The translations under genes and the position numbers were made by a program. A DNA stretch of 46,086 bases from Rhizaria sp. SCN 62-66 (taxonomy: Eukaryota). The notes beneath the pieces are model-generated. The model was not told where the DNA came from. It did no database searches and saw only the letters and a list, made by a program, of their open reading frames with translations. Within the stretch, counting starts at the first letter, position 1; every line of letters starts with the position of its first letter. Positions 3,301-36,251 of this stretch are shown here, piece after piece. The stretch spans positions 62,001-108,086 of the forward strand of contig MEDY01000053.1 in NCBI GenBank assembly GCA_001724265.1, written 5' to 3'.

Positions 3301-6300
3301 CTACCTCGTCGACCGCGACCGTGGCCGCCTCGGCCTCGGCGTCGTCGATTACGGCGGCGACCGTGTCCGGACTCGGCTTGGGCCTCGGCCTGGGGTTGGG
3401 GCTCGCTTTGGGCGCAGCACCCCTGCAGTCGCCCTCGGTGGGCTCGCAGTCGCCGCCGCTGGCGACCCCCGGCATCCCGGCCGCGTCCTCGACCGTCGCG
3501 CTGGCGATCGGCTCGCCGTCGCACGGGCTCGCGGCGCAGGGGGCCGCGCTCACGCAGACGCACGCGCAGAGCCAACAGCAGCAACAGCAGCAGCACAGCC
3601 ACGCGCAGGGGCTGGCCCACGGCCACGCGCACGCGCTGTCAGCGCACGGCCTCCCGCCCGCGCACGCGCTCAGCCTGGGCGCGGCGGCGCTGGGCTCGCC
3701 GCCCTCTCTCGGCTCGCCGCCGGCGGGCTTCTGGGCCGTCGGCGGCGCGGGCGGCGCTGGCGCCGGGGCGGCGGGCGGCTTGGGCTCGCCGCCGGGACTT
3801 GCACACGGGTTTTCATTCACGCCCACGCACTCCGCCGCTGCGCAGTCCACCACGCAGTCCGCGGCGCAGTCGTTCTCGGTGCCTGCCACCGGGGCCGCGG
3901 CGACGACGCCGACGATGGGGGCTGCGACAACGCCCCATAGCGCTGCCGCGAACGGCAAGGCGAGCCCTTCTGCGCGCCCTTCGCTGATTTTGGTTTCTGG
4001 CGACGGCCCGTTGGGCAGCTCGCCTCCGCAACACCCTCTATCGCCGTCGGCCGTCTCCCTCAGCCACAGCCAGAGCTCCGCGACTGCCCCTGGAGCCAAG
4101 TCGAGTCCGCCGTACGCGCCACTCAGCCCCACTGCAGCCAGTGCAGCCAACCGCGCTGTCAGCGGCAGTCTCGAGCCCAGTGCAAATGCGAATAGTGCAG
4201 GCCCGCCGCCGTCGCCGGGCCCAGCCCGTCCGCGCCGCCGCTCCAGCCTCAAGGCTTCGGTTGCCGCCGCCGCCGTCGCCGCCGCTGCTGCGGCCGAGGC
4301 TGCGAGCGCCGAGGCCGCTGCGACCGGTGGCCGTCGCGACAGCGCCGCTGTGGGCGGTGATGCCGTCCCGCCCCCGGAGCTGCTGCTGCGCCGACGCACG
4401 ACCACCGCGCTCGCCTCCGCGCTCGCCTCTGCGACCGCGGCCGCGACCGCGGCTGCCTCTGTGCCGGGCACAGCGGCAGCGGCTGCGACGGAGACAGCGG
4501 CTGCGACGGCGGCGCGGCGGCGCGTGCGTGCGCGCGTGCAGCCGACCAAGGTCCGCGGCCTCACCGCCGCAGCGACCGCGAGCGGGGCCACTGCCGGCGC
4601 TCGCGCAGGCAGCGCGTCGCCGCTCTCGGCAGCTGCACCTGCAGTCGCTGCTGGCGCGAGCGCTGCGCCGCTGTCGCTGTCTCAACCGCTACCGCAGGCG
4701 CTGATGCCCGGTGTCGTGCCGCTGTCTCCCGTCGCCGTTGTCGTGCCCACCCCCACGGCCGCGAGCTTCTACACCGGCGGCAACTCCAACTCCAACAGCG
4801 TCACCAGCCCCGCCACCGCCGCGCCGGCGCCCGTGACGCGCGCCGCGACCGTGCCCGCGTCCGTCGCCACGTCCAGCGCCGCAGCGGCGGCCAGTGCGGC
4901 AGCGGCGGCCTTGAGCGCCGTCAGCGGCCTCGGCGTCGGCGCCCTGCGCGGCGGGGGCGGGCTGTCGCCGGCCACGAGCAACAGCGTGCCTGCTACCGGC
5001 GCCGGCTCCAGCACTGGCACGGGCACTGGCGCTGGCACTGGCTCTAGCGCGAGCTCTAGTTCCAGCTCGACTGCGACGACGACGGCTGCGACCGCGCGCC
5101 GGCCGTCTACCTCTGGTTCCCCTGCTACTGCGCCTGCAACAACCCCGAAGACCACGGCAACCTCTGGGGTGCCTGACGCAACGAAGGCGCTTCCGACTGC
5201 CAAGGCTGGAGCTGCAGCTGGCACTCAGGCTTCTGCTGCCGCTGCGATGACGTCTCCCCGGTCTCTGCCTCAGTCTTCGTCGTCAGCCTCATCTTCGTCG
5301 TCGTCTTCGCCGCTCGCGGCCGCCAGAAGCTCTGCCGTCGCGCTCGGCGGGGGCTACGGCGGCGACAGTAGTGACGAGGCCGGCGACGACAGCGACGACG
5401 GCGACGACGAGAACAATGTCGACGAAGAGGACGACGAGGAGAACGAGGACGACGGCGACGGTGACAGCGTTAGCAGCACCATCGGCGCTGCAGCTCCAGT
5501 GGCAGCTGCTGCGTCGTCGACCTCGGCGTCTCGCGCCGCACTGCCCACGCCGCTGCTCACGCCGCTGTCCCCGCTGTCGCCCGCGTCGCCGCCGCTGCGC
5601 GCGCCGGTGCCGCCAGCGTCCGCGCCCTCGGCGCCCTCCACAGTTGCGTCCGCGGCGGCAGCCAGCTCTAGCCCGCCCGCGACCGCTGCCGCGGCCGCCA
5701 ACGGCGCTGCGAGCGCGGCGCCGTCGGGAAAGATGACCGTGACCGCGAGCGCCGCAACCGCCGCGGGCACTGGCGGCGTCGGCGCGGCGCGGCCGGCCGC
5801 GCTGCGCAGCGCTGCTGAGGTTGACCCGCAGTCTTTGTCGATGTCGCTGCCGACCGCGCTCTTGCTGCCGACCGCGCTCACCACGCCTCAGTCGCAGGGC
5901 ACGACGACGACGACGACAGCGACGACGGCGAGCTCGGTAGCATCTGGTGCGACGGACCCTTCCAGTAGCAGCAGCAGTAGCAACGCGCCGACCGCGGCCG
6001 CCGCCGCCCTGGCCGCGCTGCGACCCGGCGCTTTGTTTCAGTCCCGCAGCGCAATGCCCACCGTGCCCGTCACCCCCGGCACGGACGCGCGACCGGACGC
6101 GCTGCTGGCGGTGCCGCTGCCGCTCAACGCCCCGGGCTCGGCGCCGCACTCCGCGGGCGCCGCGGCTCCTGCGGCGGGCCCCAGCGTTGATGGGGCCGAG
6201 GCGGCGGGCGGCTTAACGTCCGTGTCGTCGAACGGCACCGTGCTGTTTTACCAGGGCACGCCGTCAGCCCGCGCGCGCACGCTGCGCGGCCCAAGTGCCA

Positions 6301-9300
6301 GCACCCCAAGCACGGTCAGTCTGACCAGCGTGAGCGCGAGCGTGACGCGGTCGTCGCCGCTCGTCTCTGCGAACGCCCACAGCTTCCAGAGCCAGGGCCT
6401 CAGCAGCGCGATGAACCAGCAGCCGCAGCAGCCCGGTGCCAGTCCGAACCGCAGCCACAGCGGCAGTGCCAGCGCCAGCGGCGCGCACAGCGAGGCCGCG
6501 CACTCGCGCTCGCGCAGTGGCAGTGGCAGCAGCAGCGTTAGCGTCAGCGGCTCCGCTTCGGGCCTGCCCGGGAGCAGTAGCAGCAGCAGCAGCGCGGTTG
6601 TCGCCGCCGCCCCTGCCGCCGCAAGTCTGGCCGACGACGAATCAGCGCGCGCGCGCCGAATGTTCCGCGGCCGCCGCGCTTACGAGCGTGGCGTCACCAC
6701 CGCCCACCGCAGCACAGGCCACGGCTACAGCTACGGCGCGTCTGCTGATAGCGACGCCGAACCCGACTCGGACTACGGCGTCGGCGGCCACCACGGCGCG
6801 GACGGTGACGGCGACGACGACAGTGTGTGCACCGACTACGAAGATCTCTTCAGTCCCACGCCGCCGCCGCAGCAGTCGCCGACGGCCGCGCTGTCGCCGG
6901 GCGCGCGCGAGCGCCTGCGCCGCAGCAAGCGCGCGAGTGTCGTTGGCGCGGCCGCTGTCAAGGCAGCTGGTCGACGTGTGGGCGCAGGCAGCGCCGACGG
7001 CCGGAGTGACAGTGACAGCGATGTTGAGAGCGGCAGCGACGAGGAGATGCTGTTTTTTACAGAGACAGATCTCGAGAAGCACTTCTGGTCCGGCATCGAT
7101 GCGCCCTCCGCGTCGCTGTCGCCGGCGCTGTCACAGCAGCAGAGGCCGCGGACGCGGTCGCCCGGCGGCTCTGCCGGCGCCAGCGGCGGCGGCAACAACG
7201 CCGGAAGCGGGCCCAGCGCCCTGCCCTCGCACCGCCATTTGCGCGCAGCGAGCAGCGCCCGCCCTTCTGTCACTGCGTCTGCCGGGCAGGCACCGGCGCC
7301 TGCGCCTACGCCCACGCCGACGCGTGCAGCAACGAAGACAACCTCGTCGACCTCTGGCACTGGCACTGGCGCTGCCTCGGCTTCGGCTTCCGTCTCGTCC
7401 TCGCTGAAGTCCACACTGGCCGCAGCTGGCGCGAACGCCACCGTGAGCGCTGCCGGAACACCTCCAACTGCGACCACGGCTGCCGCGACTGCCCACATCA
7501 ACTCGCCGCACGCGGTTGCGCTGCGCATGGCTGGCGCGACGCGCGCGCGCCTGCAGCCTCTGTTCCCGCCTCCGCAGCCGCAGTCGCTGCAGCTGCTTCC
7601 CGCGCCCTCCCCGGGCTCTGCAACTGTCCCTACTGCGACCACGAATGTCTTCGCAGCGCCGCTGCCGTCGCCGACCGCAGCGCCGGTCGACGCGTCGTCT
7701 CCGCTGCCACAGACGCGAGAGCCCGGACAAGACGGCCATACCGTGGGCATGGACTCGCCATCCCTGCTGCTGGCTGCGCCCGTCGCCGCGAGCGCCGGCA
7801 TTGAGGCCGCTGCGGACGCAGTCGCCGCCGCGCTGGCCGCGCTCGCGGTCTCCGGCGCGCTACCTGCTGATGCCGACGCCGGCGCGGCCGGGAACGCCGA
7901 GAAGTCCGTCGCCGCCGCGGTTGATGTCGCGGAGTCGCTCTCGGCCACCGCGCCCGCGGCCGCTGTGGCGGCGGCGCGGCTCGCAGTCGCGGGCTCGGTC
8001 GCAGGCTCAGTCGCTGGCGTTGCCATCGCACGGCTCATCTCTGTCGTCGCCAACGCCGCTGCCACCGCGTCCCCCGACGCCGCTGAGATGCACGTCGAGA
8101 CGGGCGCCGACGCCGCCGCGGACATCGGCACGGCCGTGCCGCTTGCGCCCGTGCCTGCGGCCGTCACCGCGTCGGCCTTTGCCGCCGCCGCCGCGGCCGC
8201 TGGGTCCTGGCCCGGCGGCACGGCGCCCGGTGACGCCCCCGCTGTTATCTCTTTCTCGGAGCAAGTCTGGGCGATTCTACAGTGCGGACGCGTGTTTACG
8301 CGGCTTAAGCCTGCAGCCACGGCGCGCCGTGGACCCTTTGCGGCTGGCCAGTCTTCACGGCGCGTGTTCCTGTGCCGGTCTGAGCCGCATGACGCGTTGC
8401 TGCTGTTCAAGGACACCGGGCGAAAGACGCGCACGGGCCTGCCGCACTTTGCGCAGTCGCGCGCGATCCCGTGCGGCGAACTCATCGACGTGCAGCGCGG
8501 CCTTGTCGGCGTCACCAGCGAGGAGGTGGCGAGGCTCGGCGCGTGCGAGCGCCACTGCATCACCGTGTCGTGCGGCTCGCAACACGGCGTGCTGTACCTG
8601 CAAGCAGACTCGGTCAAAACGTGCTCGCTGTGGTGCTTTCTGCTGCTGTTGCTCAAGAACTACAGCGGTGTGCCCCCGCAGCTGCGCCCGCACATGCGCG
8701 TCTCTGAGTTTGTCGTGCCGCCGCCAAACCCGTTCTACTTGGCGCAGAAGCTCGACATGCTGTACGGCACGATTTTGCCGCCCGGCAAGGACAAGCCCCC
8801 GCGCGAGCGCAGCATCTGGCAGCAGATCTCGATCGCCTACGTCAAGGTGCCTGTGCTGCCGACTACGTATACTTCGCCAGCACCGGACGACCCGAGGAAC
8901 GCTCTCGCGGACGGCTCAACGAAAGAGGCACACCCGTCGACGACAACGACCGCCGCCGCGGTCACCGCGGGCACCGCTTTCGGCCGCGCCCTCCGCGAGG
9001 CCGTTGCCGAGGCCAACGCCGCGTCATCGAGCCGCAACCCGCCGCTGGTGCAGAGCGAGGCGCTGACGTCGCCCGCGTCGCGGCTGTCCATCCTCGCGAC
9101 CCCGGCGCCCATGTCCTCGGCGCAGACGGCGCTGCTGTTCGAGCGGCTGCTTGTCGCCGGCCAGTACGTAGCGCACTACCTCACGCCGACGTCCGCGCCG
9201 TCGATCCTGTTCCTTCGGCTGGACCCGTCGCTTGAGTCGATCGTGTTCCGCCACGACCGCATCGGCACGTTCAAAAGCTCGATCCCCGTCGCGGACATCG

Positions 9301-12300
9301 TCTCTCTGCTGCCGATGCGCGGCTCGCCGCTGCTGGGCCGCACCAAGTACCCAGTCACGCTGCGCCTGCGCTCGGGCTCCACGTCGGCCGTGTTCGTCGG
9401 CACCCTGCTCGCGCCGACCGAGCCCGACCGCGACCCCGACGCGACGCTCGGCTCCGCGGTTATGGGCGACAACCCCGTGCTCGCTGCCAAGGCCGCGCGG
9501 CCGCAATCGAGGCACGCACCCGCCACGCTGGCCGCCGCCGCCGCCGCGGGCGCCGCCACGACGGCCGTCCCGCAGGACACTGCGCTGGCGGGCGGCCGCA
9601 GGCTCGTCTCGCGTCTGCAGCGGCTGCGGCCCGGCACGGCGAGCGATTGCGAATCAGACTCGGAAGTGGCTGACCCCGCAGTAATGTTCGCGCTCGACCT
9701 CGACACCGCCATCAAGGGCGCGGGCCCCGGTGCCGTTGCCGCCGCGAACGCTGCCCTGGCCGCCAGTGGCGGGAGTATGCTGCGTGCAATGATGCCCGGC
9801 GTGCCCCGCAAGGGGGACCCCGACTTCCGTAACGCCATGTCATCGTTCTCAACGACAACGGCTGCTGCTGCGTCGCTGCACATGGTGCCGCCTGCCGCAG
9901 CGGCCGCAGCCGCTGGTCCGAGCGGTGCGGGAACGGAGGGTGGAACCACTCACGACAGCGCGGGCAACAACTACATGCACGTCGCTAACGTCAAAAAGGG
10001 CTCGGTCGGCTCTTTGGAGCTGCCGAAGGACGTGCTCACGCCCTACCCCGGCATGGCAGCCGCTGCGACGCGTGCCGCCGCCTTGCACGCCGCCGACTCC
10101 GTCGCCACCACCACGACGGCGAGCAGCGGCAGCACCAGCGGCAGCCTCGTGAGCGACGGCGAAGGCGGCACTTTCGGCGTCGTCGACGACACCGTCGCCG
10201 ACCTGTTGTGCCGCATGTCTGGCTCTCTGCGCGGCGTCACCACCGGCCCGCTCACCGCTGCGCTCGACTCGGTGGCCCGCGCGCGCGCCCAGGCCGCACT
10301 GGCGCTGCCCGCGCCGCACACGGGCGAGATGCCTCTGACTCTGGACTTCCACCTCGCCTTCAACGACTATCCTACATCGCTGCTTTGGTACACTGCGCTG
10401 CGCTGGCTGCGCGCGCGCGACGCCAAGCGCGCCGCCGCTGCCGCCGCCGCCGCCACTGCTGCCGCCGCTGCTGCCGCCGCTGCTGCCGCCGCAACTGGTG
10501 CAGCGACGACAACTGGTCGCCGCGAAGGCTACCCACATGGCTTTGTCCACGGCCACAGGCGCGGCGCTATGGTGTCGAAAAGCGCGCTCGCCGCTGCAGA
10601 CTTAAGCGCTGCGACTGCAGCCACCGCGGCGACTCTGGGCGCGACTGGCGCTCACGTAGGGCGTGCTCAGAAGCGGGCGACGGGGCGCGCCCGCGGTGCG
10701 CGCGCCAGCAGCATTGCAGTGGCCGCGCTCCCCGCAGCGGCCGCTGCCGCCGCCGCGGCCGCCGCGGCCGCTGCCACCCCCGGCATCGTGCAAAGCGACA
10801 GCGTTGTCGTCGCTGCTCCGGACGTCGAGGGCGACGTCGGCACTGTGCTGTCGATGTCGCCGTCACACGGCGGCGCCGCGAAGCCTGAGATCGATCAAGT
10901 CGACCTAGCCGAGGGCGAGGCAGAGGTGGGCGGAGAGGTGGGGCCCGAGGCAGAGCTCGAATTGGCGCTCACCAAGCGCCGCCGCTCTGCGTCCGGGCTG
11001 CCTCAGCTGCCGACGCCGACTCTCGCGCAGCCCCAGCAGCAGCAGATCGCGCAGCAGACGCTTGCGCAGGCCCAGGCGCAGGTGACTGCGCACGCCAACA
11101 TGCGCATTCTCGCGCCGCGCTCGGCTCTCTCAACGCAGGCCGCAGACGCCAAGGCGCGCGCAGGCTCATTCCTGCAGTACCAGTATTATGCGGACGAAGC
11201 CCCGGCGGCACAAACTCTTGCAGAAAAAGGCGGAGTCGCCACTCCAGCCGCGCCCGTCCCCACGGCGGGCGTGGACACTGCGCGCGCGCTAGATTGGTGC
11301 GCGCAGTTCTTCGCCACTGGCCGCGCGTTCCGCGCCTTCGGCCCCGATTCAGCCGGCCGCGTGTACTCGGTGCTGCGCCGCAACGCGCCTGGCGCGCCGC
11401 TGCCGCCTGTAAACGCGCGCCTCGACGCGCAGCAGCCCAGCTCGGCGGCCTCGCTCGCGTGGCAGGCACAGTCACTGCAGACAGCCGCAGCGTCGGTCGC
11501 CGGCCCCCCGTCCGCGTTCGTGCAGACGTCGCCGGCGCAGGCCGTTGCTGTCAAGGTCGTTGCTACGGACAGCCTCGAGGCTGAGACGGAGATGAGCGTG
11601 CTGCGCTACTGCCGGCACCCAAATATCACCGTCTTCTTCGGCGCGCACACGCCGACCAGCGTGAACACCACCGCGAGCCTGCTCTCGGTCGGAACCGCGC
11701 AGCGCACGTACTTGCTGCTCGAGCTCTACCAGTCTGGCTCTGTTGCTGCCGTGCTCGCGCGCTCGCGCAGGACGCTGCGCGAGTGGCATATTGCGCTGCT
11801 GCTGCGTGGCGTCGCCAGTGCGCTTATGTACTTGCACGCGCGCGGTGTCGTGCACCGTGACATCAAGGCTGCGAACGTGATGCTCTCCGCCGGTGGCACG
11901 GTCGTCAAGGTGGCTGACTTTGGCGTTGCATTGGTCGATCCCGACGCGCTTGACGCTGCAATCCGCGCCGAATCTGCCGCCGCCAGCGCCGGGCTGCGTA
12001 CGGAGGAGCACGCGCGCCTGCAGTCGCTGCAGGCCGCCGCAGCATCGCGCCTGGCCGGATCACCGCTGTGGATGTCCCCCGAGGTCCTCTCCGGCAGCAC
12101 GGCGACCGCGGCGGCGGACATCTGGGCGCTGGGCGTGCTCGCGGTCGAGACTGCGCAGCGCGGTCGCGTGCCGCACCAGTCGGCTGCGAGCGTCGTCGAC
12201 CTCGCCGTCGCGGTCATCACGGGGCCTGCGCCCACGGTCCCCATCGCGCCCGACACCGACTCTAGCGCCAACGCTGCGCCCACTTCTGTGACTACTGCTG

Positions 12301-15300
12301 ACGCTGCGGCTGTAACGGGGACTGCGGCTGCGTCCACCCGCAGCAACAGCTCTGTGGCGCCCGCCTGGTAGCGCGAGGCTAACAGGGGTTACTCGCCGCT
12401 GTTTGCCTCTTTTCTCGAGCGCTGCTTTGTCAAGGACCCGGAGCAGCGCGCCACGGCTGCGGAGCTGCTCACGCACCCGTTCCTCGCCGCCGCCGCACCG
12501 CTGGCCGCGGCCGCCCTGGCCGCCGCAGCCGTGGCCAGCGACGACGACGCTGCTATGCTGGCTGCCGTGGGCGGCGACACGGGGATGCGGGAGCAGCTCC
12601 TCGCGGTGGCGCACTTCACGCGCTGCGGCGAGTACCCTCTGCGCTCCGGGCCGGACTCGACGCTGTCGTCATTCTCCACGGCCACCGCGGCGTCGGCGCT
12701 GCACCGCACCCCGGCGCACGCTGGCGCGCCGCAGACCGAGAGGGCTGTGTCGGCCTCGGTGAGCTCGATGTCCCCGCTCGCGCTCGAGCCCGCTCTTGCG
12801 CCCACGGTCACGCTGCCCGGGCGCGGCGCAGCGCCGCTGCCCGCCGGTGTCGCGGGGCGCAGGCCGCTGTCGGACAACACCAGGGCGGCCGCGGCCCCCG
12901 TGTCCGCCGCTGAGTCCGCGGCAGCAGCAACAGCGACCGGCGCTGCGACAGCCGTACATCCCGACCAAGATGTGCTGCGCCGTATGCGGTCCGCCCCGAC
13001 TGTTGTCACCTCCGCGACCGATGCTGTCTCTACCGCCGACGTTGCGCAGCAGCAGAAACCGGCCAAGCCGGTACGCGCGGGCGTCGCTGCTGCTGTGGCC
13101 AAACCCAAGGCGCCACGCGTGCTCAAACTCGGCGACTGGGTCAAGGGCGAGGGCGGCAAGTGGCGCGCTGCGAACGCGCAGGACGTCGCCGCGTCCGTTG
13201 CTGCGGCCGCCGCTGTGACGATTGCGGCTGTGCCGACGGCTGCGACGGTACCTCTGTCGCCAAGTGGCTTCGTCTCGAGCCCCAGCGCTGGTGCTCAGCG
13301 CGCTGCTCCCGCGACTGCGCCCGCTGCCGGTATCGTCACCGTCACCGGCGCGCGGGCCGTCGAACAAGCGTCGAGCCGGGACTCTCAGTCGTCGTCGCAG
13401 ACGCCGTCGATTGCGCAGTCTCAGTCGCTGTCGATGTATTCGCAGCCGCAGCAGCTGTCGCCCATCGTTGCCTCCGACGCGACTACCGCGGGCTCGGCCT
13501 CGGCGATCGCCTCTGCCATCGGCGCGGTCTCTGCCTCGGTCGTTAGCGCTGTGTCCGGTGCCGCCTCGGAGCTGCCACCCGCGCCCGCGCCCGCGCCCGC
13601 CGCCGTCAGCTCGCTGGCCCTCGCAGTGCCCGCAGCGGCGGCCCGGGGCTCGGCCCAGCCGGCAGCGCGCTCGCTGCCCGCCTCGGCCGTGGTCGCCGCA
13701 GGCAGCCCGCAGTCGCGGTCCGCCGCGCCCTCGCTCGCACCCAGCATGCCGCCGCTGCCCGCGGCCACGGCTGGCGTCAGCAACGTCACCACAGGCCGGC
13801 TCGCGCTCGCACCCCCGATCACGGTCGGCGCGGGCGCGGCGTCGGCGCTACTGCTGCGGCAGCTCGTGGCGCCCTCGCAGCTCCAGATGGCGCAAGCGCG
13901 CATCCGCGGGCGCCCGCGCGGGAGCCGGCCGCCGCCGCTGTCGGTCGCGGCCGAGGGCGCGACCTCCGCGCCCACGCCGCTGCACTCGCCCCCGGCGGCC
14001 GCGGCCCGGCCCACGGCGGCTGCCGGCATGGAACAGGGCCGCGGTGGCCGCCGGGGCAGTCCCACGCGCATGCAGCAACTGCGCCAGCGCCAGCTCCTGC
14101 GGTTCGGCGCCGCCTCGGTGCCCACGTCGCCGATCATTTCCGGATACCGCCAAGCGCGCCCCGCCGGCCGCGCGCTGCCCCACGGCCACCGCGGCCATGG
14201 ACAGGCGCGGCGAGGACTTGGCCGCGGCGACGGTGAGGGCGGCGACGGCGACGAGGGCGGCGCCAAGGCCGCTGCGGCCGGCGGCAGCGCGCGGCAGATC
14301 GTGAGCATCGAAGAGCTCCGGCGCAGCGCGCGTGCCGTGTTGTTGTCGCTGCAAAGCGAGCTCGGCGAAAACAAGCCGTCCGACGTCACTGCTGTTGAGT
14401 CCGCTGAAGTCAGCGCCAGCTCGCCGTCGCCGTCCCCGTCGCGCTCGCCCTCAGTCACCAGCGAGCCCGACGCCGACGCCACCGCCGCTGCTACTGCGCC
14501 TGCTTCGAAGCTTTCCACTGTGGGCTCTGGCTCCGGTTCCGGCTCTGATGCTGACGCGACCGTGTCGGCCTCCACGTCGCCAGTGCTCGGCCCCATTGCC
14601 GCGTCCTCCGCTGTGACCATGCAGCCGTTGTCGCGCTTCCGTCACCGCGCCACCGCGCGCCCGCTCACAACCGCTATCGCTGGCGACGCGGCGGCCCTGG
14701 CAGGACCCGCTCGCGTCGCGTCGCCCGCTCTGGCTGCGACTGCGCTGGCCGAGGCCGAGGCCGCTGCGGCCGCGGGAACGCGCCTGGGCCGACACTCCGA
14801 GTACCGCCTGCGTCTGGCCGCCGCCGAGGCGCGCGCGCTGGATTCACAGTCGCGCTCGCCGGCGTCGCGCACCCACTCGCCCGCAGCGCGCGGCGCCGGT
14901 GCGGAGCGGGGCGACAGCGGCAGCAAGAGCCGGTCTGCGACGCCGCAGTCAGCGCGCCTGGCCCGCGGCCGTGACCGAGACCGCGGTCGCCCCGACGCGC
15001 TCGTGGGCGCGCGCTCGCGCTCGCCCTCGGCGGCGCTCATGCACTCGCCGCTGCCCGCAGTCACCGCCGTCACGGCCGCGGACGGCTATGTCAGCTCGTT
15101 TGTGCACGTGCGCGCCGAAACGCCCACTCGCGCACCCACAACGACGGGTACGTGCTCTGCGGCGCGGTCTGCGGCCACTGCGGCCGCGGTCGCCGCAGCG
15201 GTGTCGAGCGCGGAAGCGGGCGCCAGTGTGCTAGGCAGCTGGAGCACCACGCCCAGCGCGGCCGGCAGCGGCCGCAACACGCCGACGCTGCTTGCGAGTA

Positions 15301-18300
15301 GCACGTCCACTGCCGCTGCGGCCGCTGCTATGGTCAGCTCACCAACTGCTGTCATCGCAGCTCCGAAGCCTCGGATCACCGCGCCGGCTGCGGTGTCTGT
15401 TGACGCCGACATCGGCGAAATTGAGCTCGAGGACATCGACAGCGGCATCACAGAGGCAGAGCCCCTCGACGACGTGCCCTGCGCCGTGCCCGTGCTTGTG
15501 CTGGCACAGCGCCCGGCGCTCACCCTGCCCGGTTCGCTCCCCGGCCCGCAGGCGCAGTCGCGGACGCAGTCGCCCGCGCGCCGCCCGCCCGCCCTCGCCA
15601 TCCCGCCCCGCGCCGGCGCCACGGCGAGCAGCGTCGTCAAGTCCGTCATTGCGCTCGCGCCCGTGCATGTGACCGCCGCGCTCGGCGCTGATGCCGCGCC
15701 CCTTGGAGTCACTGTTGCTCCCAGTAGCAGCAGCGGTGGCAGTGGCGGCGGCGCCGGTGTGGTTGACAGTGGTATTGAGCTTGAGGAAATCGACATGATT
15801 GGTGAGTTCAACACCGACATTAGCAGTGGCCACAACCTCCCCAGCACTACTGCTCTCGTTGCCGCTCCTCCAACAACGCTGACAGTTGTGTCCGACTCCG
15901 CAAAGCACGACGCACAGTCACGCGCGACCCTCGCACCCCCCCGCAGCGGCGGCGGCAGCGTCACAGCCACTGCCGTGTGCGCCGCGACGACTCTGCCGCC
16001 CGCGCCGCTGACCGGCTACTCCGGTCGCCGCGACGGCTCCATGCTTACGCAGCACCACGACGATGACGACGACGCGGCCGCGGCGCGCGCGCTGGCCGCA
16101 CTGCCGCAACGGCTCCGCGCGCGCACGCAGGGAGCAGTGACGGACCTGCCATCGGTCTCCGCGGCGCACAGCCAGAGCCAACAGAGCGTGGCCAGCAGTG
16201 TCCCTCACGCCGCGGTCACTGCGCTGAGCCTTGGCGGCCACGTCGCCGTGCAGCCTGGGCTCGTCCCCGCGGCCGGCGCGCGCCGCAACGCCGCGTCCAA
16301 GCCGGCCCTCGCGCGCGGGCTGCGCATCTGCACTGCGGGCATCGAGCACGAGGACGAGATCGACGCCATCACCGGCCGCGGCGCGCTCACGCACACTTGC
16401 GGCGCGGCGTCGCACGGTCTTGCGGCGCCGCAGGGCGGTGCGGTGTCGGCGCTGTCCGTGCCTGCGGGTGCGCGGACCCAGATGGCGCAGGCGTTGCCGG
16501 ATCCCTGCAGCGAGTGCGGTATCACGCGCGCCGGCGAGTACGTCGCTGTGCCCTCGTACGGCGGCTTTGTGTCAACCACGAAACTCGCCTCAGTCGCGGC
16601 TGCCGTCTCGCGCGCAGGCCCTGTGACAGACCTGTGGCCCCTCGTGCACGCGCGCAGCACCGACAGCGCCACACTGCCCGGGGCAACTGCCGAGGACGCT
16701 CTGGCACACTCCGCAATGGTGCACTCGCACTCTTTCCCGATGCCACACCCTCACGTCCACGGTCACGCTCACGGCGTGGCCGCTGCGCCTGTGTTGCTGC
16801 CAGCCATGGTTCTGCCGGTGGGCGGCTTCGGCAGTCGGCGCGGCAGCGGCGACGCGCGCAACGCCACCGACTCTGCTGGGGGCCTCGGACTTGGTCCCAG
16901 CGGGCTCGCCGGCATCGGCGGCCGGAGCAGCAGCAACAGCGGCATGAGTGGCGTCAGCGATCCCAGCGCGGTCGCGAGCGGTTCCGGCGACATCGAGCTT
17001 GAGTCGCCGACCGAGATTGCCGCCGAGCTGGGGCTGGACTGGGGTACCGTCGCGGCGGCCACGCTCAAGACCGAGCCCCGCGCGCTGCACCACGCCGCCT
17101 CGGTGCAGGTTGCGAGCGCGCGGCAGGACTCTGTTACTTCTGACGCCAAGTACGACTCCGACGCCGACTCTGTCGCGGCGACGGCGAGGGCAGCTGTGCC
17201 GGTTGGACGCAAGCCCGGACTCGGCATCGCGACTGGCGGCGTTGCTGGCCGCCGCAGTGGCGCGCCTCTGCCGCCCGCAAGTGCAATCTCGACTGCAACA
17301 GCCACGGGCGCGTCTACGCCCGCAGCTGCGGCGGCGACCGGGCCGGTGGGCGGGATCACGCTAGCGCTGCCTCCACGCCGCAAGCCCGAGGTCCAGCTCA
17401 CCGTCCCCACGGGCATCAGCATGGGCAAGGACGCCGCCGTCGCAGGCTTGGTCCCTGCCGCTTCAACCACTGCGAACGTGTCCGAGGCCCTTGTCGCCGC
17501 CGCCGTCGCCGCTTCCCACGAGCACAGCCACCCCGGCGCTGCGGTGCACAGCATGGGCCCCCACAGCGCCAGCACGCTGAGCCTCGGCGGCGAGAGCAGC
17601 GGCGCGGGCGCGGCGGGCATGACTGGCATGACGAGCGTCAGCGGCGACGTTGCCATCGGCGACGGCGGCGACACGGGCCCCGAAGCGGGCTTCTCCATCA
17701 CTGGTCCCTGCCTCAGCTATGGTGGCTTCACCATCAGCCAGACCGGCATCACCGCGGCGCCGCAGCTGCTGCCCGCGCGCGGTCGCAACATCACGCCCGT
17801 TGCCGGAGTGCATGGACACCCCGGTGTGGGCGTGCACGGCTACGCTGACTCGGCCGCTGCCAAGGCGGCTGCTGCCGCGACTGCGGGACTTGCGATTCCG
17901 TCTCACCTACAGCAGCAGCAACAGTCCGCTGCGAATGCCGCCGCGCGCGCGCGCAGCCGGCCCCCGCTGCCCGCTGCACCGCCCGTAGCTTCTGTGTTGG
18001 CCGGTCCTCAGCGCAGCCGCAGCCGCACGCGCGACCGCGACGACGCCCTCGTTGGCGCTGCGGGGGCCGCCGGTGCGACTGCGGCTCCGCGCCCGCAGCA
18101 GTCCGTACATCACCTGCACTCGCCGCCTCAGCGCGCGCACTCGCGCCCGCGACTGGTGTCGGAGATGCTGCAGCGCACACAGCAGATTGCCGCGGCCCGT
18201 CTTGCAGGCAACGCGCAGAGCGATCACACGTACACCGTCAACACCGCCGCAGTCGCGGCATCGACAGAGAAGCGCGACAAAGTGTTGTTCTCGCCGCGCT

Positions 18301-21300
18301 TTGTCGAGTCGCTGATGATTGCGCAGCAGAACACGCACAGTCTGTCCGCGACCGTGAGCGTGGCCGTGTTCCAGCACGCACACGACCTTGAGCGCCGCCT
18401 CTCGCGCCCCGCGCCCGCCGTGGCCTTCCACGCGCACCCGCACGGAGACGCCGCTGCTGCGGCGCCCGGTGACGCGGCGCGCAAGCAGAGGCCGGAAGCG
18501 ACCAAGTCGCCGGCCCTACCGCTGATGCCTCTTGGCGCATCCAAGAGTGGTGGTCCCGTGCGCGACAGGTTTGGCACGGTCACGCTGAGCAACTTGTTGT
18601 CGCCCACCAGGGTCCGGATGCAGCAGGAGGCGTTTAGCAACAGCTCGACCACTGGCGCCGCCACCGTCGATGCTGCTGTTGCGGCGGGAACTGCGGCCGT
18701 GCATGTCGGCAGCGCCTTTGGCGCGTCGCCCACGCCCGCCGGCACTGCTGCGCCGCTGCGGCCGCGCCACAGCAGCAGCGCGGTCTCTCTGCGGGGGCAC
18801 AGCTCCGTTCCGCCCTCCGCCGCGGCGCCAGCGCCCGTCTCCACGCTGAGCGTGGGCGCTGGCGGCGTCGCGGCCGGCGGGCTCCTGGCCGTCACCGCAG
18901 GCTCCGCGGTCGACACCGCGTTGCTGCGCATGAGTCGGCGCCAGGCGTCCTGGCTCTGGCTGGGCCGCTACAAGACGCAGATGACGTCTTCGCCGCTGCA
19001 GCGCTCCAAGATCGGCCATCTGCGCCACTCCGCCTCGGCGCGCAACGCCGCTGCTGCAGTTGCCGCGGCGGGTGTCGCTCCTGCTGCTCCCGGCGCTGGT
19101 GCCGGCGGTGCTATCGCGCCGGGCACTGTGCCGGTGAAGCCCTCCGTGGCCGCTGAAACGACCGTCATGTCGCACGCGCCGAGCAGCGCAACGAGCCACA
19201 GCCACGCCGGCTCCACGACCAGGTACCGGCCGCCGCAGTCGTCCCCGTTATCGACGTCGATGACCACGTCTGTCTCCTCCTCGTCCGGCTCACACGCGTA
19301 CCGCTCCGCGCTCGACACTGCCGTCGCGCGCCCTGCTGTCGCAGTCGATACCGCGGGGGCGAGCGGGGGTGCGAGCGCCGCTGCCAGCGCTGGCCCCGGC
19401 GAGGTGGCGACTAGACCCGAGACCAAGGCTGTGCTGTCGCCAACATCTATCACCACGACCACCTCTGGTGCTAGCGCGATTGCCGTCCCCGCGACCACGC
19501 TCGCGTCTGCGGCAAGCACCGCTAGTGTTCCCGCGGTTTCGCCCCGTGCCTCCACCTACGCCGCCACCAGCGCCAGCACTGCCCAGGCCAAGCCCCGCTA
19601 CACAGTCACATCCCCCGAGCCTCAGCTCGCCACCGGCGAGATTACGGCTGCTACAGAGGCGGACTCTGTGTGGGCGCGAGTGCCTGAGGGGGATGGTGGC
19701 TCTGTGATGTGGGAAGACAACGATATCGAAGTGCGTTCGCTCGACGGCCACGGCTCCCCGCACTCCGCCGGCACGTACAGCGCCGCCTTCAAGGCCACCG
19801 GTGTGGCCACCGATGTCGCCGGAGTCGCCGGTGGCGCTGCGGAGCCGGCGGAGGTTGGCGAGGGCGTGATGGTCTTTGAGGCCGGTGTGGACCCCGGTGA
19901 GGCGCTGCTCTACGCCGGCGGCTACGACGATGACGACGAAGACTACGAGGCCTACGCCCACGGGCACGGGCATCTGCGCTCGTATGCGCGTCGGCACGAA
20001 GGGCTCGATAATATTGACGAATTTGGCGACGGCGATAGCGGGATGGACGAAGACGACGAGCGTGACGAGGACGAGGACGAGGACGAGGACGGCACTCTCG
20101 ACGAGGACGAGGAGGAAGAAGCTGCTGATGGCGACTACGAGAGCGCAGACGCGTCGTCGCGCCTCTGCACGCCGCTCTCTGCGTCCGACCTGGTCGAAAT
20201 GGCCTTTATCGGCCGCGGACAGCACGGCCGCGTCGTTCGCGCGCTCCACCTTCCCTCGCTCTGCATGCTCGCTGTGAAGCGCATCAACGCGTTCAACCTC
20301 TCCGCGCGCAAGCAGCTGCTTAAGGAACTCATCGCGTATGCGCGTTTGTCGTCGCCGTGCGTAGTCCCGCTGCTGGGCGCCTTCTTCGACCAAGGCACGA
20401 TTGTCCTCGCGAGCGAGTATATGGACCTCGGCGACCTGAAGCGCTTCGTGGCGCGCGTGGGCCCGCTCTCCGGCCACGCGCTGCGTCACGTCGCGCGCCG
20501 TGCTTTGCAGGGCCTGGCGTATCTGCACCGCGCATACCTGGTGCACCGCGACATCAAGCCCGACAACATCCTCGTTGACCACAAGGGCAACATTAAGATC
20601 TCCGACTTCGGCCTGCTCAAGGAGCTCGAAGGCACACGTTCTCTGACGACGTCATTCCTCGGCACGATGTCGTACCTGTCTCCGGAGCGTCTGACCTCCG
20701 CGCCGTACTCGTACCCCGCCGACGTCTGGGCCATGGGGCTCGTTCTGGTCTACTGCGCCACAGGCCGGCCCGCGTTCGCGACCTCGGACTACTGGCGCCT
20801 CTTCGACTCAGTCGTCACCGGCAACGCCGCCGCCGCAATCCTGAGCCCCGAGGTGCACGGCGAGCGCTTCTGCTCTCTGGTGCGGCTGATGCTGGCGCAG
20901 GACCCGACGCAGCGGCCATCTGCGCAGGAGCTGCTGCGGCACGACTACTTCTCTGAGCCCGATGCGCTGGCCGAGAGCTCGCCGCAGTACGCCGCGTTCA
21001 TCTCCGAGACCTTCGGCGCCGCGGCGGCGGGCGCGGCGGGCGGCGAGGACGAGGAGGGCGAGCTCGAGAGCGAGTTCCAGAAGGCCGTCGACGTCGTGGT
21101 GGACGCGCACTTCCATGGCATCCTGCGCGTGCCGCGCGCCGTGCTGCCACCCAGCGTGGCCGCCGCGCTCGGCCTGCCCGACCCCTCCAGCGCCGGCAAG
21201 GGCGGCAAGCCGGAGGACGCCGGCGCGAGCGGCTCGGTGACGACGACGGGCGGCGCCGATGCCAACAGTGACGGCGAGTTCGTCTGGGTGCAGGGCTACC

Positions 21301-21569
21301 GGCCGCTGCTTGCCGAGGACCACGAGCGCTGCCAACGGCTTGCCGACCTGTACCGCGTGCCCGTGTCGGCCGTGCGCGCCGCGTTCGAGGCCGCGCTCCA
21401 GCGCAAGCAGGAGGAGGCCGGCAATGCGGACATTCTGCGCAGCATCGGGCTTTTCGCCGTGCCGGGCAGCGCCAACGCGAGCGCCGCGGACTCGGCGGGC
21501 GTCGCTGCGACCGACAGCACGGTGGGCAGCGCCAGCGCCGCCGGCGGTGTTGTTGCTCCGCTTGTCTAA
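312..21569 (+). CDS. Giant dual protein kinase (2 PH-like domains + STE20/MST-like kinase + MAP2K/STE7-like kinase), ~7085 codons, with one in-frame TAG at 12369-12371
   Basis: ORFs 312..12371 and 12531..21569 share a frame. Only TAG 12369-12371 separates them, and the codons right after it read REANRGYSPLFASFLERCFVKDPEQRATAAELLTHPFL, the missing subdomain XI of kinase 1. An in-frame TAA at 258-260 bounds the ATG at 312; the frame ends at TAA 21567-21569. No AT-rich intron-like segment lies inside. Confidence 0.85.
2172..2237 (+). repeat. CAG/CAA trinucleotide tract encoding interrupted polyQ
   Basis: Translates to QQQQQQQVQQQQQQMQQQQQQQ. Confidence 0.9.
8259..8660 (+). other. PH-like domain 1 (PLC/Num1-type pattern) in the giant kinase
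   Basis: Globular island within low-complexity sequence: EQVWAILQCGRVFTRLK...RRVFLCRSEPHDALLLFK...RAIPCGELIDVQRG...CITVSC...VLYLQADSVKTCSLWCFLLLLLK, ending in the typical L-x-L-x-A....W helix. Pattern recognition only. Confidence 0.55.
9138..10412 (+). other. Split PH-like domain 2 with a ~300-aa low-complexity insertion
   Basis: N-part FERLLVAGQYVAHY...ILFLRLDPSLESIVFRHD...SSIPVADIVSLLP...YPVTLRLRSG (9138-~9410). C-part TLDFHLAFNDYPTSLLWYTALRWLR (10338-10412) carries the PH terminal Trp helix. Confidence 0.45.
11337..12485 (+). other. Kinase domain 1, STE20/MST(Hippo)-like, spanning the in-frame TAG
   Basis: VAVK (K codon 11553), EMSVLRYCRHPNITVFFG, HRDIKAANVML (11853), DFG (11916), GSPLWMSPE and DIWALG lie before the TAG; FLERCFVKDPEQRATAAELLTHPFL lies after it (invariant Arg codon 12447). 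Confidence 0.85.
20190..20951 (+). other. Kinase domain 2, MAP kinase kinase (STE7)-like
   Basis: IGRGQHGRV, AVKRI, RKQLLKEL, SPCVVPLLGAFF, SEYMDLGDL, HRDIKPDNIL, KISDFG, activation loop T-RSLTT-S (S/T-x5-S/T), GTMSYLSPERL, YSYPADVWAMG, QDPTQRPSAQELLRHDYF. These are STE7 signatures. Confidence 0.85.
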
Positions 21570-22622: not shown

Positions 22623-25600
22623 ATGGATGAGGTACGACAAGATAGTAACCTCAAAACAACGCATCATCTCGGAAATATATGCCATGCTTGATAATTTTTC
22701 ACATGTGTTGCCTATTTGCCATTGACGTTGCCTTCCACAGCACCTGGCTGACTTTCGTCACGCGCCGCGGAGCAGCGAAGCGGAGCAAGAGCAGCAACAG
22801 CGCCAGCGGCCGCGCCAACGCGCGTTCCCATCCCTCTCCAGCCTACCCGGTCGCCGCTACACGCTGTTTACCGTTATTGGCATTCTGCTTGTGATCTGCG
22901 TTGTCATTTTTGTCGCCGCAGTGACGAACTGGTTCCCCTCGTCACTCTTCTCATCCGCCGCCGTCACGCCTCCCGCCCACTCGGCCCGCGCGCACAGCCA
23001 CGCCAGCGCGGGTAAGAGCTCCGGCGCGACATTCATGCGGATGCTACATGACTCTGCTCCGCCGCCGCAGCAGCAGGGCCCGTCTGGCCTCGGTCCCGAG
23101 TGCGTGCCGTCCGGCTTCACGTTCGGCGCCGCCACGGCCTCGTACCAGGTGCGTCTTACACAAACGCTCGACAATGAAGACGCGCGTTGACAATCATGTA
23201 TGCGCTCAAAACGCGTTAATGTTGAAGAGTCTTTGTTTGTATTGGCCGGCGCAATGTTATTTATTGTCATACTGCAACGCCATGTCTTGAAGTCTCACAT
23301 GTGTCTCTGCACTCGCTCGCTTCTCTTTTGTTTTCCCTCCTCTGTGTGTCGCTCTCAGATCGAGGGCTCCGTGGCCACGGATGGCCGCAGCGCGTCGATC
23401 TGGGACGCATTCGCGCGCGTGCCCGGGCGCATTGCGGACAACACGACGGGCGACGTGGCGGCTGACAGCTACCGCCAGTGGCGCAACGACATCTCCCTAC
23501 TGCGCGACATGCACGCCAAGAGCTACCGGTTCTCGGTCAGCTGGTCGCGCGTAATTAACAAGGACGGCTCGGTCAACGCGGCCGGCGTCAAGTACTATGA
23601 GGACCTTGTGCGCGGGCTCGTGTTGGCGGGGATCCGGCCGTTCGCGACGCTGTTCCACTGGGACCTGCCGCTGTTCTTCGACGTCGCGCGGGAAAACTAC
23701 CCCCAGATCTTCGACAACACCACTGCCGCCGCCGCCAGTGCCGCCGCCAACAGTGCCAGTGTTGTCAGTGCCAGCGCCGCCGCGCGGTGCGCCGGGCCAA
23801 CGTGCCGCGGGCCCAGCGAGCCCACGAAGCAGTGGGTGGTCGACTCGGCGGGCCCGGTGCATCTGGCGTCCCATCTCAACACCACGGCCACCGAGCCCGC
23901 CTTCGTGGGCGCCGCGGTTGGCGCGCTGCTGGCCGACCTCGAGCTGCCCACCCCGCGCGCCGCCGACGCCCCTGTCACGGTCCGCGGCTGGGCCGACCCT
24001 TCCCGCTGGCTAGCGCCGCTCTTCCTGCGCTACGCCGCGCTCATGTTCCGCGTCCTGTCCCCGCTCGGCGTGCGCGACTGGGCTACCTTCAACGAGCCGC
24101 ACTCGTTCTGCGTGCTCGGCTACGGGTCCGGCCAGCACGCGCCCGGGCGCTGCGCGGACCGCGCACGGTGTCCCGCCGGCAGCGGCGAGCGCGAGCAGTA
24201 CCAGTGCGGACACACGGTGCTCCTGGCCCACGCGTACGCCGCCAAACTCTACAAGGAACACTATGCCAGCGCAAGCGTAAGAGCGGGCGCAAGTGCAGTC
24301 CCAACCTCTGCCTATGCCTCTGCCTCAACCTCTGCCTCTGCGTCTGCCTCTGTCTCCGCCTCGGACTCTGCTCAGACTGACTGCCGCGGCAGCATCACCA
24401 TCGTGCTCAACAGCGACTTCATCTTCCCCGCCTCCTTGGCGCCGCTGCTGCACACGCGCACCGCGGCCAACCCGCTGCCGCTGCTGTCGCCCGCCGACGT
24501 GGCCGCCGCGCCCGCGCCCGAGCGCGCCGCGGCGGCCCGCGCGCTGGCCTTCTCGCTCGGCTGGTTTGCTGACCCGCTGTTCCGCGGCGGCCGCTACCCG
24601 CGCGCCATGCGCCGCGGGCTCCCGGCTGGCATGCTGCCCGCGTTTACAGCGGCGCAGCGCGCCGTGTTGCGCGACGCGGTGGCGGACGTGTTTGCAGTCA
24701 ACCACTACACTAGCCGGTACGCCAGACCGGCGCCCGGCTGCGAGGACGTGGACGACGGAGACGACGACGACGATGACGACGGCGACGATGATGATTATTA
24801 TGAAGACCATGGCGGCGATCTTTGCAGCCGTGACGACACGAGTGGGCGCTCGCGACAAAAGCCGCAGCGGTCGCTGCTGGGCCGTATTCTCGACAGCGTG
24901 ATGCCGTCTCGCCGCGACCGGGAAGTTAGGCCGCCCCGCGTCCCAGCCCGCGCCGCCGCGGAGCGCACGCCGCCCTCGTGCGCGACCGTGAGCGAGCTCG
25001 ACGACGCGGGGCGGCTCATCGGGCCGCAGGCCGATAGTCCGTGGCTGTACTCGGTGCCGGCTGGGTTGCCGCTGCTGATGCAGTGGATCACTGAGCGCTA
25101 CAGCGAGCCGTTTCACCGCCTGCATGCGCGCTTCAACAGCAAGATGAGTCCGGTTGCGACTTGTGTGCCGCATGTGCCGAGCGCTGCCGCGAGCGCTGCG
25201 AGCTCTGCAAGGGTTTTAAGTGCGGCGAGTGCGCGTAAGATCCCGATCGTGATTGCGGAGAGCGGGTGTGACGAGCCTGGCCGCAGCGCGCCCGACCTCC
25301 CGCTGCCGGTCTACTTGCACGACCCGTACCGCACGCAGTACATGCAGAACTACTCGCGCGCGCTTTTCGCAGGCGCGGGCGCGCTGCAGTATAACGTGCG
25401 CGCGCTTTACGCCTGGTCGCTCGTGGACAACTTCGAGTGGGCTGAGGGGCTGTCCAAGCGCTTCGGGCTGTACTACGTCAAGTACACCAAGACTAACACA
25501 AGCAGCGACGCCGCGGCGGGAGGCGACGGCTACACTGTGGAGCGGCTGCCGAAGGAGGCGGTCAAGTGGTACGGCGAGCTCGCCAGGGACCACACGCAGC

Positions 25601-36216: not shown

Positions 36217-36251
<35 letters not shown>

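Follow-up and report, generated by a model that had tools for sequence, protein, structure and literature searches.

The giant reading frame and its two kinase domains

The window, by which we mean the whole 46,086-nt stretch of DNA that was analysed, carries on its forward strand an intronless gene of 21.3 kb, by far the biggest mutational target present in it, whose frame of 7,102 codons (261..21569, read from stop to stop) is interrupted by a single TAG. The features of this gene are as follows:

261..12368, + strand: upstream part of the giant single-exon frame (4036 codons open over 261..12371, TAG included)
11526..12485, + strand: kinase domain 1, MST/STE20-like, with three low-complexity inserts (Pfam Pkinase, PDB, alignment)
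12237..12389, + strand: 51-residue loop between the GPAPT motif and YSPLF, holding the TAG (MST1 alignment, AlphaFold2)
12367..12426, + strand: predicted RNA hairpin whose basal stem includes the UAG (pair A12370-U12423)
12368..12385, + strand: 18-nt GT..CTAACAG intron look-alike, in frame, misfitting the local introns in splice site, length and AT-richness
12369..12371, + strand: in-frame TAG, next base C (UAG-C), seen in the letters, the frame, DNA run X3 and polyA RNA-library run X6
12372..21569, + strand: downstream part in the same frame (3065 codons, TAA at 21567-21569)
12390..12485, + strand: post-TAG segment YSPLF...THPFL with helices H-I, subdomain XI and the invariant F and R (STK4 alignment)
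20199..20951, + strand: kinase domain 2, MEK/MAP2K-like, complete (Pkinase 4-263/263, E 2.7e-59)

Around the TAG (12363-12398) the codons are GCC TGG TAG CGC GAG GCT AAC AGG GGT TAC TCG CCG. The upstream part, whose first ATG is codon 18, is mainly low-complexity sequence rich in Ala, Ser, Gly and Thr, and a Pfam scan of the 3065 downstream codons found no domain besides kinase. GC by codon position is 0.69/0.68/0.82 upstream and 0.72/0.63/0.82 downstream, so that GC3 is 0.82 before and after the TAG. Among the other stop-free frames that overlap 1-21.6 kb, the two longest reach 679 and 607 codons; since the local GC content is 0.70-0.75, a run of thousands of stop-free codons is not due to chance. 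The original prediction that the frame continues without a stop for about 3065 codons past the TAG is confirmed. Every intergenic spacer and every intron of the window is an AT-rich island and there is none near 12.4 kb; the TAG site is therefore not a gene boundary.

Kinase domain 1 spans the TAG. Upstream of it, the Pfam Pkinase profile is matched only over positions 21-193 of 263 (100.2 bits), whereas with the TAG read as X the match extends over 21-263 of 263 (127.7 bits, E 6.9e-37; residues 76-395 of the translated piece 11301-12600), with the region of the Gly-rich loop (profile 1-20) unmatched. Only with the TAG read through does the domain show what is expected of a PF00069 member, namely a full-length match together with the Lys, HRD, DFG, APE and the Arg of subdomain XI. 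The best PDB matches are STK4/STK3, and the post-TAG segment aligns to residues 223-258 of human STK4/MST1 (8a5j_A; whole-protein E 2.3e-29). When the domain was aligned with 34 metagenomic STE20-like kinases (35 sequences with the query), all 25 invariant columns were found to be kept, those before the TAG including K12, E24, H112-R113-D114, N119, D133, G135, P187-E188 and D200, and those after it F298 and R310, which are invariant in 35/35 sequences. In the AlphaFold2 model built from that alignment (mean pLDDT 77.2), residues 291-320, after the TAG, reach 95-98, and the insert residues 251-290, which hold the TAG as residue 284, only 42-61. This insert belongs to a loop that is predicted to be disordered, in which MST1 has 6 residues against 51 here (query 239 to 291 versus chain 216 to 223). 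Letters, frame, Pfam, alignment and structural model thus agree with the original prediction of an in-frame TAG inside an otherwise intact kinase domain; the Pfam match with X, the STK4 match, the alignment and the model also bear out that this domain requires the post-TAG sequence, and the STK4 alignment with F298 and R310 that an MST/STE20-like subdomain XI lies directly behind the TAG.

The complete MAP2K domain that had been foreseen further downstream is kinase domain 2, whose closest solved relative is MEK1 (3sls_A, E 2.1e-40) and whose nearest protein-atlas cluster is named MAP kinase kinase family. The two domains thus resemble STK4/STK3 (E ~2e-29) and MEK1 (E 2e-40), respectively, and domain 1 keeps the catalytic residues of the MST/Hippo-type STE20 kinases. 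In contrast to STK3/STK4 and the MEK-type MAP2Ks, both domains here share one frame of about 7,100 codons and are interrupted and separated by long low-complexity inserts.

No protein of comparable architecture was found, either in a word-indexed protein search or in a HMMER scan of 1.84 billion representative proteins. The former gave nothing at E <= 0.001 with the 7,102-residue read-through (region 3690-4190) or with a 170-residue piece spanning the TAG, and the latter no near-identical protein: its best match (P0001, 235 bits) carries four or more kinase domains in tandem, with about 25% identity each, and another (P0003) is a repeat of kinase fragments. In metagenome contigs, where the window's own contig was not among the matches, 497 kinase-related loci were found; the best 80 of the 497 are all only 24-35% identical and so include no ortholog. 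The only other GC-rich locus (L070, GC 0.69) was rejected as a counterpart, being a different kinase in a different genome context. An exact 50-nt pattern spanning the TAG, in which the codon itself was left as NNN, gave 0 matches in genome contigs, and a protein-atlas comparison of the proteins of the window returned generic eukaryotic kinase and GH1 clusters only.

The TAG in DNA and RNA-library contigs

Contigs of four runs were compared with the window, among them X3, which is DNA from another study, and X6, a polyA RNA library from a third study. The TAG is real in both. A single X3 contig covers the site (12226..13836, depth 5.93) with 0 differences, and an X6 contig is colinear over 12307..12654 with 0 gaps, keeps the A at 12370 and has one difference, 12407 C>A, 36 nt from the TAG. 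Two X6 records (21 and 22) run colinearly over 11955..12654 with 0 gaps, although they could represent pre-mRNA or DNA. The original prediction had named CAG or TGG in DNA, and separate transcripts meeting at about 12.4 kb, as findings that would count against it; the X3 contig has TAG, and the X6 contigs run through. The contig joints listed include none at the TAG, and all have sides of 20-25 letters and lie in repeats. Past the end of the ORF the depth of X6 is 0.79 in the last bin (21343-21999), while the other runs continue, a hint that X6 is an RNA library. Run X4 has zero depth at the variable position 12407.

It is in our view quite improbable that the TAG arose in sequencing or assembly, or that it belongs to a heterozygous or minority allele beside an intact one. 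Contigs lose rare variants, so that a second allele could hide, and some variation within a sample does exist, since two X3 contigs carry differing letters at 9856. However, the DNA and RNA-library contigs both keep the TAG, none of the four runs lists an alternative letter at 12369-12371, and the single X3 contig at the site is counted on the same side. The TAG is moreover common to samples from 2015 to 2025 and, because the X6 contig also carries 12407 C>A, it stands on at least two haplotypes; it is therefore not a private recent mutation. The synonymous share of the natural variants is alike on the two sides of the TAG (5/16 upstream and 3/10 downstream) and near the neutral expectation. 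As for the earlier suggestion of either a sequencing error or a recent null allele, its first half fails on the independent contigs, and a fixed or recent null allele is the simplest reading that remains.

Introns and codon usage of the window

Eight introns were read in the window, among them 23149..23358, 34498..34699 and 41217..41326. They are 110-231 nt long and AT-rich (GC 0.33-0.46 in the first 80 nt, against 74-79% in exons), all 8 begin with GTRYGT, and they end with CTCAC or CTTAC boxes 5-15 nt before YAG. Homology backs them: exon 2 of the GH1 gene begins at profile position 20/453, and a Kri1_C domain (E 6.9e-18) lies behind two introns. A TAG at 34579 was considered as the terminator of the Kri1 gene and rejected, as it falls within the intron 34498..34699, the terminator being the TGA at 35822-35824; a TGA taken as the end of gene C was likewise discarded for lying in an intron.

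Against this background, splicing would have to remove the TAG with an 18-nt intron (GTAGCG..CTAACAG, 12368-12385) or with versions of 54 nt (12332-12385) or 66 nt (12354-12419). The candidate does have GT..AG ends and a CTAAC box before CAG|G, comparable to the CTCAC/CTTAC boxes of the real introns, and all three lengths are multiples of three. But GTAGCG is not GTRYGT, the candidate is short and GC-rich, and CTAACAG is no commoner in the window than chance would have it (2 found, 1.72 expected). The 66-nt version would delete ten residues that align to MST1 and to all 34 relatives, and 12368-12385 is retained in the X6 contigs, with the proviso that these could be pre-mRNA or DNA. Introns of about 18 nt are not known outside lineages in which introns are uniformly tiny. 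The site is thus not a typical intron; an intron here is unlikely, and splicing is the explanation to which we give the least credit.

The codon census bears on the variant nuclear code, with UAG as a sense codon, that had been put forward as one option. Throughout the six genes of the window TAG occurs once in 13,465 in-frame codons, five of the six having none. Even the least used sense codons are more frequent (TTA 7, AGA 10), and a free synonym of CAG (388), scaled by TTG/CTG = 64/579, should occur about 43 times. A genome-wide reassignment of UAG is unlikely for this reason, and that option is disfavoured. UAG could still be a rarely used sense codon, through a UAG-only reassignment or a position-dependent double meaning, in which case the gene would be intact; this too is very unlikely. 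The frame is open for 7,102 codons with TAG as sense, the TAG is stable across samples and kept in the RNA-library contig, and the six terminators of the window are TAA in one gene and TGA in five (the stop of gene C being read by eye), never TAG, which is the pattern expected of a reassigned UAG, although six genes are too few to tell. No tRNA gene of any kind and no Rfam family was found in the 46-kb window. As described in PMC5304391, known UAG-only codes look different: 126 genes of Iotanema spirale (UAG = Gln) held 204 in-frame UAGs, and in the rhizarian exLh (UAG = Leu) most of 71 genes had at least one, many at conserved positions. The window resembles both in having a nuclear in-frame UAG and, in its six genes, terminators that are TAA or TGA, but where theirs lie in most genes and often at conserved sites, this 46-kb window has a single TAG, far below the expected count and in a disordered, non-conserved loop.

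Termination or decoding at the UAG

Another proposed route was A-to-I editing of the mRNA, which would convert the UAG into UGG (Trp) at this one site, perhaps in one life stage, as in the pseudogene-like kinases of fungi. ADARs are not known outside animals, which speaks against editing here. Like the ascomycete PUK1-type genes described in PMC4817773 and PMC11156358, the gene has a UAG in the kinase domain, is otherwise intact and keeps its downstream frame; PUK1 of Fusarium graminearum is the precedent for the position of the UAG (PMC4817773). The U at -1 preferred by fungal editing (PMC11156358) is present, though trivially so, and the site lies within a predicted RNA fold that is better than random. 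However, PUK1 has two tandem UAGs, with editing proven by RNA reads, according to those reports, whereas here the UAG is single and the contig keeps the A. A12370, pairing with U12423, sits in a predicted stem and not in a hairpin loop, the setting that fungal editing is reported to prefer (PMC11156358). A>G accounts for 1 of the 15 letter changes listed for X6, and contigs can hide minority variants such as partial or stage-specific editing. No feature assigns the organism to the filamentous ascomycetes; its exons have a GC of 74-79%, and the lineage is unplaced, the atlas clusters being generic eukaryotic ones. Editing therefore found no support in these analyses, and we regard it as scarcely probable.

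A further route is read-through, for which there is an argument, albeit a weak one, from context: the bases after the six real terminators are A, T, G, A, A and G, and the base after the TAG is C, which at +4 generally raises basal read-through (for UAG, 1-2% in mammalian cells; PMC4615788). The predicted hairpin has a free energy of -33.6 kcal/mol (z -2.45, with 5 of 200 shuffles equally good), and 3 of 141 81-nt windows across the gene reach z <= -2.45, which places the TAG region in the top 2%. Such a better-than-shuffle fold could hint at a structure-dependent mechanism. Under programmed, efficient read-through, Gln, Tyr, Lys or Trp would be brought to the UAG by a near-cognate tRNA, possibly aided by the hairpin, and the 7,100-residue two-kinase protein would be a regular product, the 4,036-residue form being a second isoform. 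Such a mechanism would account for the intact downstream frame, for the two intact kinase domains, for a TAG placed in a predicted disordered loop, where any residue fits, and for its presence on two haplotypes and in samples ten years apart. As in the eukaryotic cases covered in PMC4615788, a leaky UAG-C is followed by an open frame. Unlike them, the next codons are CGC GAG, with none of the CAA UYA or CUAG-like motifs given there and no spaced downstream pseudoknot, and the stop interrupts a catalytic domain, where theirs precedes a C-terminal extension. The hairpin contains the stop itself and does not start some bases 3' of it, and one of its predicted pairs (G12377-C12407) is lost with the natural variant 12407 C>A. 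Programmed read-through is known to extend finished proteins and is not known to complete catalytic domains. No ortholog in which the stop might be conserved was found in metagenome contigs or protein libraries. The known stimulators being absent, this option has only the weak argument from context, and we consider programmed read-through unlikely.

We tentatively prefer, at slightly less than an even chance, a genuine UAG under the standard code: a nonsense change fixed in the disordered loop and passed only by basal read-through. The UAG would be present in the genome and the transcripts, and the nonsense substitution would be fixed, or at least dominant, in the lineage, so that the allele would be young and either null or strongly hypomorphic. 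Translation would mostly end at the UAG, releasing the 4,036-residue product, a kinase without helices H-I and subdomain XI, so that an active C-lobe should not fold. The protein of about 7,100 residues with both MST-like and MEK-like domains would arise only through basal near-cognate read-through, for which UAG-C, a comparatively weak terminator, would allow on the order of 1%, as in tested eukaryotes; the loop position of the site would make any inserted residue acceptable. What we infer here is that the code is standard, that termination is the chief outcome and that the change is young.

Several observations support a nonsense allele, namely the TAG in the X3 and X6 contigs, its occurrence on at least two haplotypes, its rarity as a codon, the lack of an AT-rich island, the misfit of the intron candidate and the size of the gene as a mutational target, to which the UAG-C context is added for basal read-through. 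An ordinary nonsense allele or young pseudogene would likewise show one stop and no sign of a dedicated bypass signal, here in a very large gene made mostly of low-complexity sequence. Other observations stand against it: (i) the 3,065 downstream codons are undecayed, with no second stop, an unchanged GC3 and a complete MEK-like domain, and the invariant kinase residues are retained before and after the TAG; a stop that is bypassed and one that is very young would both give this picture. (ii) Two haplotypes, and samples separated by ten years, have the TAG in common, which, with the intact downstream codons, sets it apart from ordinary nonsense alleles. (iii) None of the six terminators is TAG, six being too few to decide. 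(iv) The RNA around the TAG has a predicted fold with z ~-2.5. (v) With 9.2 kb behind a premature stop degradation might be expected, yet RNA-library contigs are present on both sides of the TAG, contig depth being no measure of degradation. The claim that the UAG is probably bypassed is not supported by the analyses run, and efficient decoding in this unplaced, very GC-rich wastewater-reactor protist, whether by programmed read-through, by an editing that is neither fungal nor animal or by a rare recoded UAG, is on the whole rather unlikely.

If the gene carries a plain nonsense allele, which we judge most likely, the finding is an ordinary one, and mainly a caution against reading a variant code into a single in-frame stop of a metagenomic eukaryote contig. 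The intron grammar of the window (GTRYGT, AT-rich, 110-231 nt) and the sharp contrast in GC between exons and non-coding DNA should aid gene calling in this organism in any case. If, by contrast, the UAG is efficiently decoded, the production of a 7,100-residue protein with MST/STE20-like and MEK-like domains would be under translational or RNA-level control. A stop bypassed on purpose would be a rare instance, outside ascomycetes and viruses, of a catalytic domain completed by recoding or editing, in a protein that fuses two tiers of the MAP-kinase cascade and in a lineage without a cultured or sequenced relative.

One reading frame and two kinase domains

Read stop to stop, the forward-strand frame extends over 261-12371 (4036 codons) and again over 12372-21569 (3065 codons, terminator TAA), the TAG at 12369-12371 being its sole break. 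Because no other stop-free frame across the same 21 kb is longer than 679 codons, both flanking frames have stops near the TAG, GC3 is 0.82 upstream and downstream of it, and no AT-rich island is found near 12.4 kb, although each spacer and intron in the window forms one, we conclude that 261-21569 is a single coding unit (gene A) and not two genes. About nine tenths of this frame is of low complexity, rich in Ala, Ser, Gly and Thr. The kinase domains are:

11526-12485, + strand: kinase domain 1, MST/STE20-like (Pfam Pkinase, STK4/STK3 matches), spanning the TAG
20199-20951, + strand: kinase domain 2, MEK-like and complete (Pfam; MEK1-like)

No further Pfam domains were found in 8001-11300, 12600-16199 or 16200-20150.

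The original prediction, an in-frame TAG within an otherwise intact kinase domain whose C-terminal part follows in frame, is fully confirmed, as is its stop-free downstream frame with a complete MEK-like domain. Upstream of the TAG, Pkinase covers only profile positions 21-193 of 263; with the TAG read as X, the match extends over 21-263 (127.7 bits, E 6.9e-37). The nearest solved structures to domain 1 are human STK4/STK3 (MST1/2; E ~2e-29), and the segment behind the TAG (12390-12485) aligns with STK4 residues 223-258, separated from the PPPT-like motif by 51 residues here versus 6 in STK4. We examined 44 loci from the best 80 metagenome relatives, picked by query coverage; 39 of the 44 translated free of stops, and the alignment holds 34, the near-duplicates L007, L016, L030, L033 and L038 being omitted. 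Domain 1 retains the residue of each of the 25 invariant columns; among them are the catalytic Lys, HRD, DFG and APE, encoded upstream of the TAG, and F298 and R310, encoded downstream. In the AlphaFold2 model built from this alignment (mean pLDDT 77.2, pTM 0.78), the TAG position, residue 284, falls within a loop of pLDDT 42-61, while the 30 residues after the loop score 95-98.

Neither an ortholog nor a second copy of gene A was found in JGI metagenome contigs, by word-indexed protein searches or by scanning 1.84 billion representatives in full with HMMER; when prokaryotic genome contigs were scanned for the exact pattern, as a check on mis-binning, there was no match. Two candidates were rejected: (i) L070, a eukaryote-like metagenome contig (1-6765, GC 0.69) whose low-complexity ORF of at least 1,280 codons ends in a STE20-like kinase that lacks the long loop insert, was ruled out at 28% identity; (ii) P0001, a library protein of 2,027 aa, contains four or more STE20-like kinase domains in tandem that closely resemble one another, and its high score, which mimicked that of an ortholog, is the sum over these.

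The TAG in independent DNA and RNA assemblies

The window contig is gene-dense and eukaryote-like, and the public runs containing it are metagenomes of bioreactor, wastewater and activated sludge. Logan contigs from four runs were placed on window 2000-21999. A DNA run from another study (X3) gives a contig over 12226..13836 with no differences and the TAG present. In a polyA metatranscriptome (X6), two contigs (11955..12319 and 12307..12654) have no gaps and one difference, the synonymous 12407 C>A (a further run, X4, has no depth there); the TAG is thus present on two haplotypes, and it is crossed unspliced and without A>G. No run lists an alternative letter at 12369-12371, in contigs that lose minority variants. 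An RNA library may contain DNA; however, X6 comprises only 270 million letters and its gene A contigs have a word depth of ~3-6, so that, with a genome of tens of megabases, carried-over DNA would have to make up tens of percent of the library. These contigs are therefore likelier to derive from RNA than from DNA, and could be unspliced pre-mRNA.

Since the X3 and X6 contigs keep the TAG and none of the four runs lists another letter there, the TAG is real: the first observation was right, and its suggested alternative of a sequencing or assembly error falls. That a second allele or an error still hides behind the codon is very unlikely.

Relative to the window, X6 also has three extra codons after 8161 (a 9-nt in-frame insertion), a length polymorphism in a low-complexity part, and X3 has two contigs at 9856, with C and T at depths of ~5.6 and 4.8, which means two haplotypes or strains within one sample. 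Of the natural variants, 5/16 changes upstream of the TAG and 3/10 downstream are synonymous, showing no difference between the sides and no clear constraint on either.

Splicing, recoding, editing and read-through

The TAG might instead be spliced out: G|GTAGCGCGAGGCTAACAG|G (12368-12385, 18 nt, in frame) resembles a tiny intron, and the genuine introns of the window were therefore read for comparison:

23149..23358, + strand: GH1 intron
34498..34699, + strand: Kri1 intron
34895..35077, + strand: Kri1 intron
35302..35442, + strand: Kri1 intron
27287..27164, - strand: gene C intron
27109..26926, - strand: gene C intron
26702..26472, - strand: gene C intron
41326..41217, - strand: gene F intron

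For two sets there is support from homology: the start of GH1 exon 2 coincides exactly with Pfam profile position 20 of 453, and the exon that follows two of the Kri1 introns encodes a Kri1_C domain (E 6.9e-18). All eight are AT-rich, 110-231 nt long and begin with GTGCGT, GTATGT or GTACGT (GTRYGT), and in several the final YAG is preceded at 5-15 nt by a box reading CTCAC or CTTAC. Their flanking exons have 74-79% GC, and the sharp contrast in composition (coding parts 70-79% GC, spacers and introns 35-46%) flags each intron and spacer. In contrast, the candidate starts with GTAGCG and is short and GC-rich, its segment is kept in the X6 contig, and CTAACAG occurs in the window at chance level (2 found, 1.72 expected). 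None of the seven GTRYGT sites in gene A is near the TAG or has AT-rich sequence behind it. Introns of about 18 nt are not known outside lineages where every intron is tiny. Splicing is very unlikely.

A variant nuclear code with sense UAG, also proposed originally, is compatible with the window's terminators (no TAG in six; one TAA, five TGA, that of gene C assigned by eye), yet six genes are far too small a sample for a decision. The ORF blocks of six genes, which predate refined intron ends and include a few dozen intronic codons, hold one in-frame TAG among 13,465 codons; the scarcest sense codons are TTA (7) and AGA (10). Given a TTG/CTG ratio of 64/579, about 43 TAG would be expected beside 388 CAG if TAG were a freely used Gln codon. 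The two UAG-only nuclear codes that have been described differ from this (PMC5304391): in-frame UAGs are common there, often at conserved positions. Iotanema spirale has 204 of them across 126 genes, and in the rhizarian exLh most of 71 genes hold one or more. No tRNA genes were found in the window. A code change or rare recoded UAG is quite improbable.

The 81 nt around the TAG are predicted to form a hairpin (12367-12426; z -2.45, equalled by 5/200 shuffles) with the UAG within its basal stem. Three of 141 windows across gene A reach this z in our own scan, and the predicted fold is a mild signal; 12407 C>A would disrupt one of its G-C pairs. The strongest local fold in the scan lies elsewhere, at 13800-13880 (81 nt, -50.9 kcal/mol, z -3.2). 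Restorative editing in fungi favours hairpin loops and U at -1 (PMC11156358), whereas the edited A would here be paired. Of the 15 letter changes in X6, a single one is A>G. Editing of the TAG appears highly doubtful. Programmed read-through finds its only positive point in the context, the TAG being followed by C and the real terminators by A, T, G, A, A and G. According to the review PMC4615788, C at +4 generally increases basal read-through (UAG ~1-2% in mammalian cells), but the stimulatory motifs listed there are absent at the TAG, and we consider a programmed event unlikely.

A stop codon in a very large gene

The reading we tentatively prefer, with a little less than even confidence, keeps the standard code and takes the UAG as genuine: a nonsense change would have become fixed in a loop that tolerates it, within a very large gene, UAG would terminate, and its passage would occur by basal read-through only. 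Together with the alternatives weighed above, this leaves some of the probability unassigned.

The window holds a second giant gene (36078-46084, - strand), with exons of at least 1,588 and ~1,713 codons joined across a 110-nt intron; it extends beyond the window end and matches no Pfam family at E <= 0.001. Gene A itself, ~7,100 intronless codons on the + strand, has both kinases in one frame, an architecture with no counterpart in the libraries searched: with its MST/STE20-like and MEK-like domains, two levels of a MAP-kinase cascade share one polypeptide.
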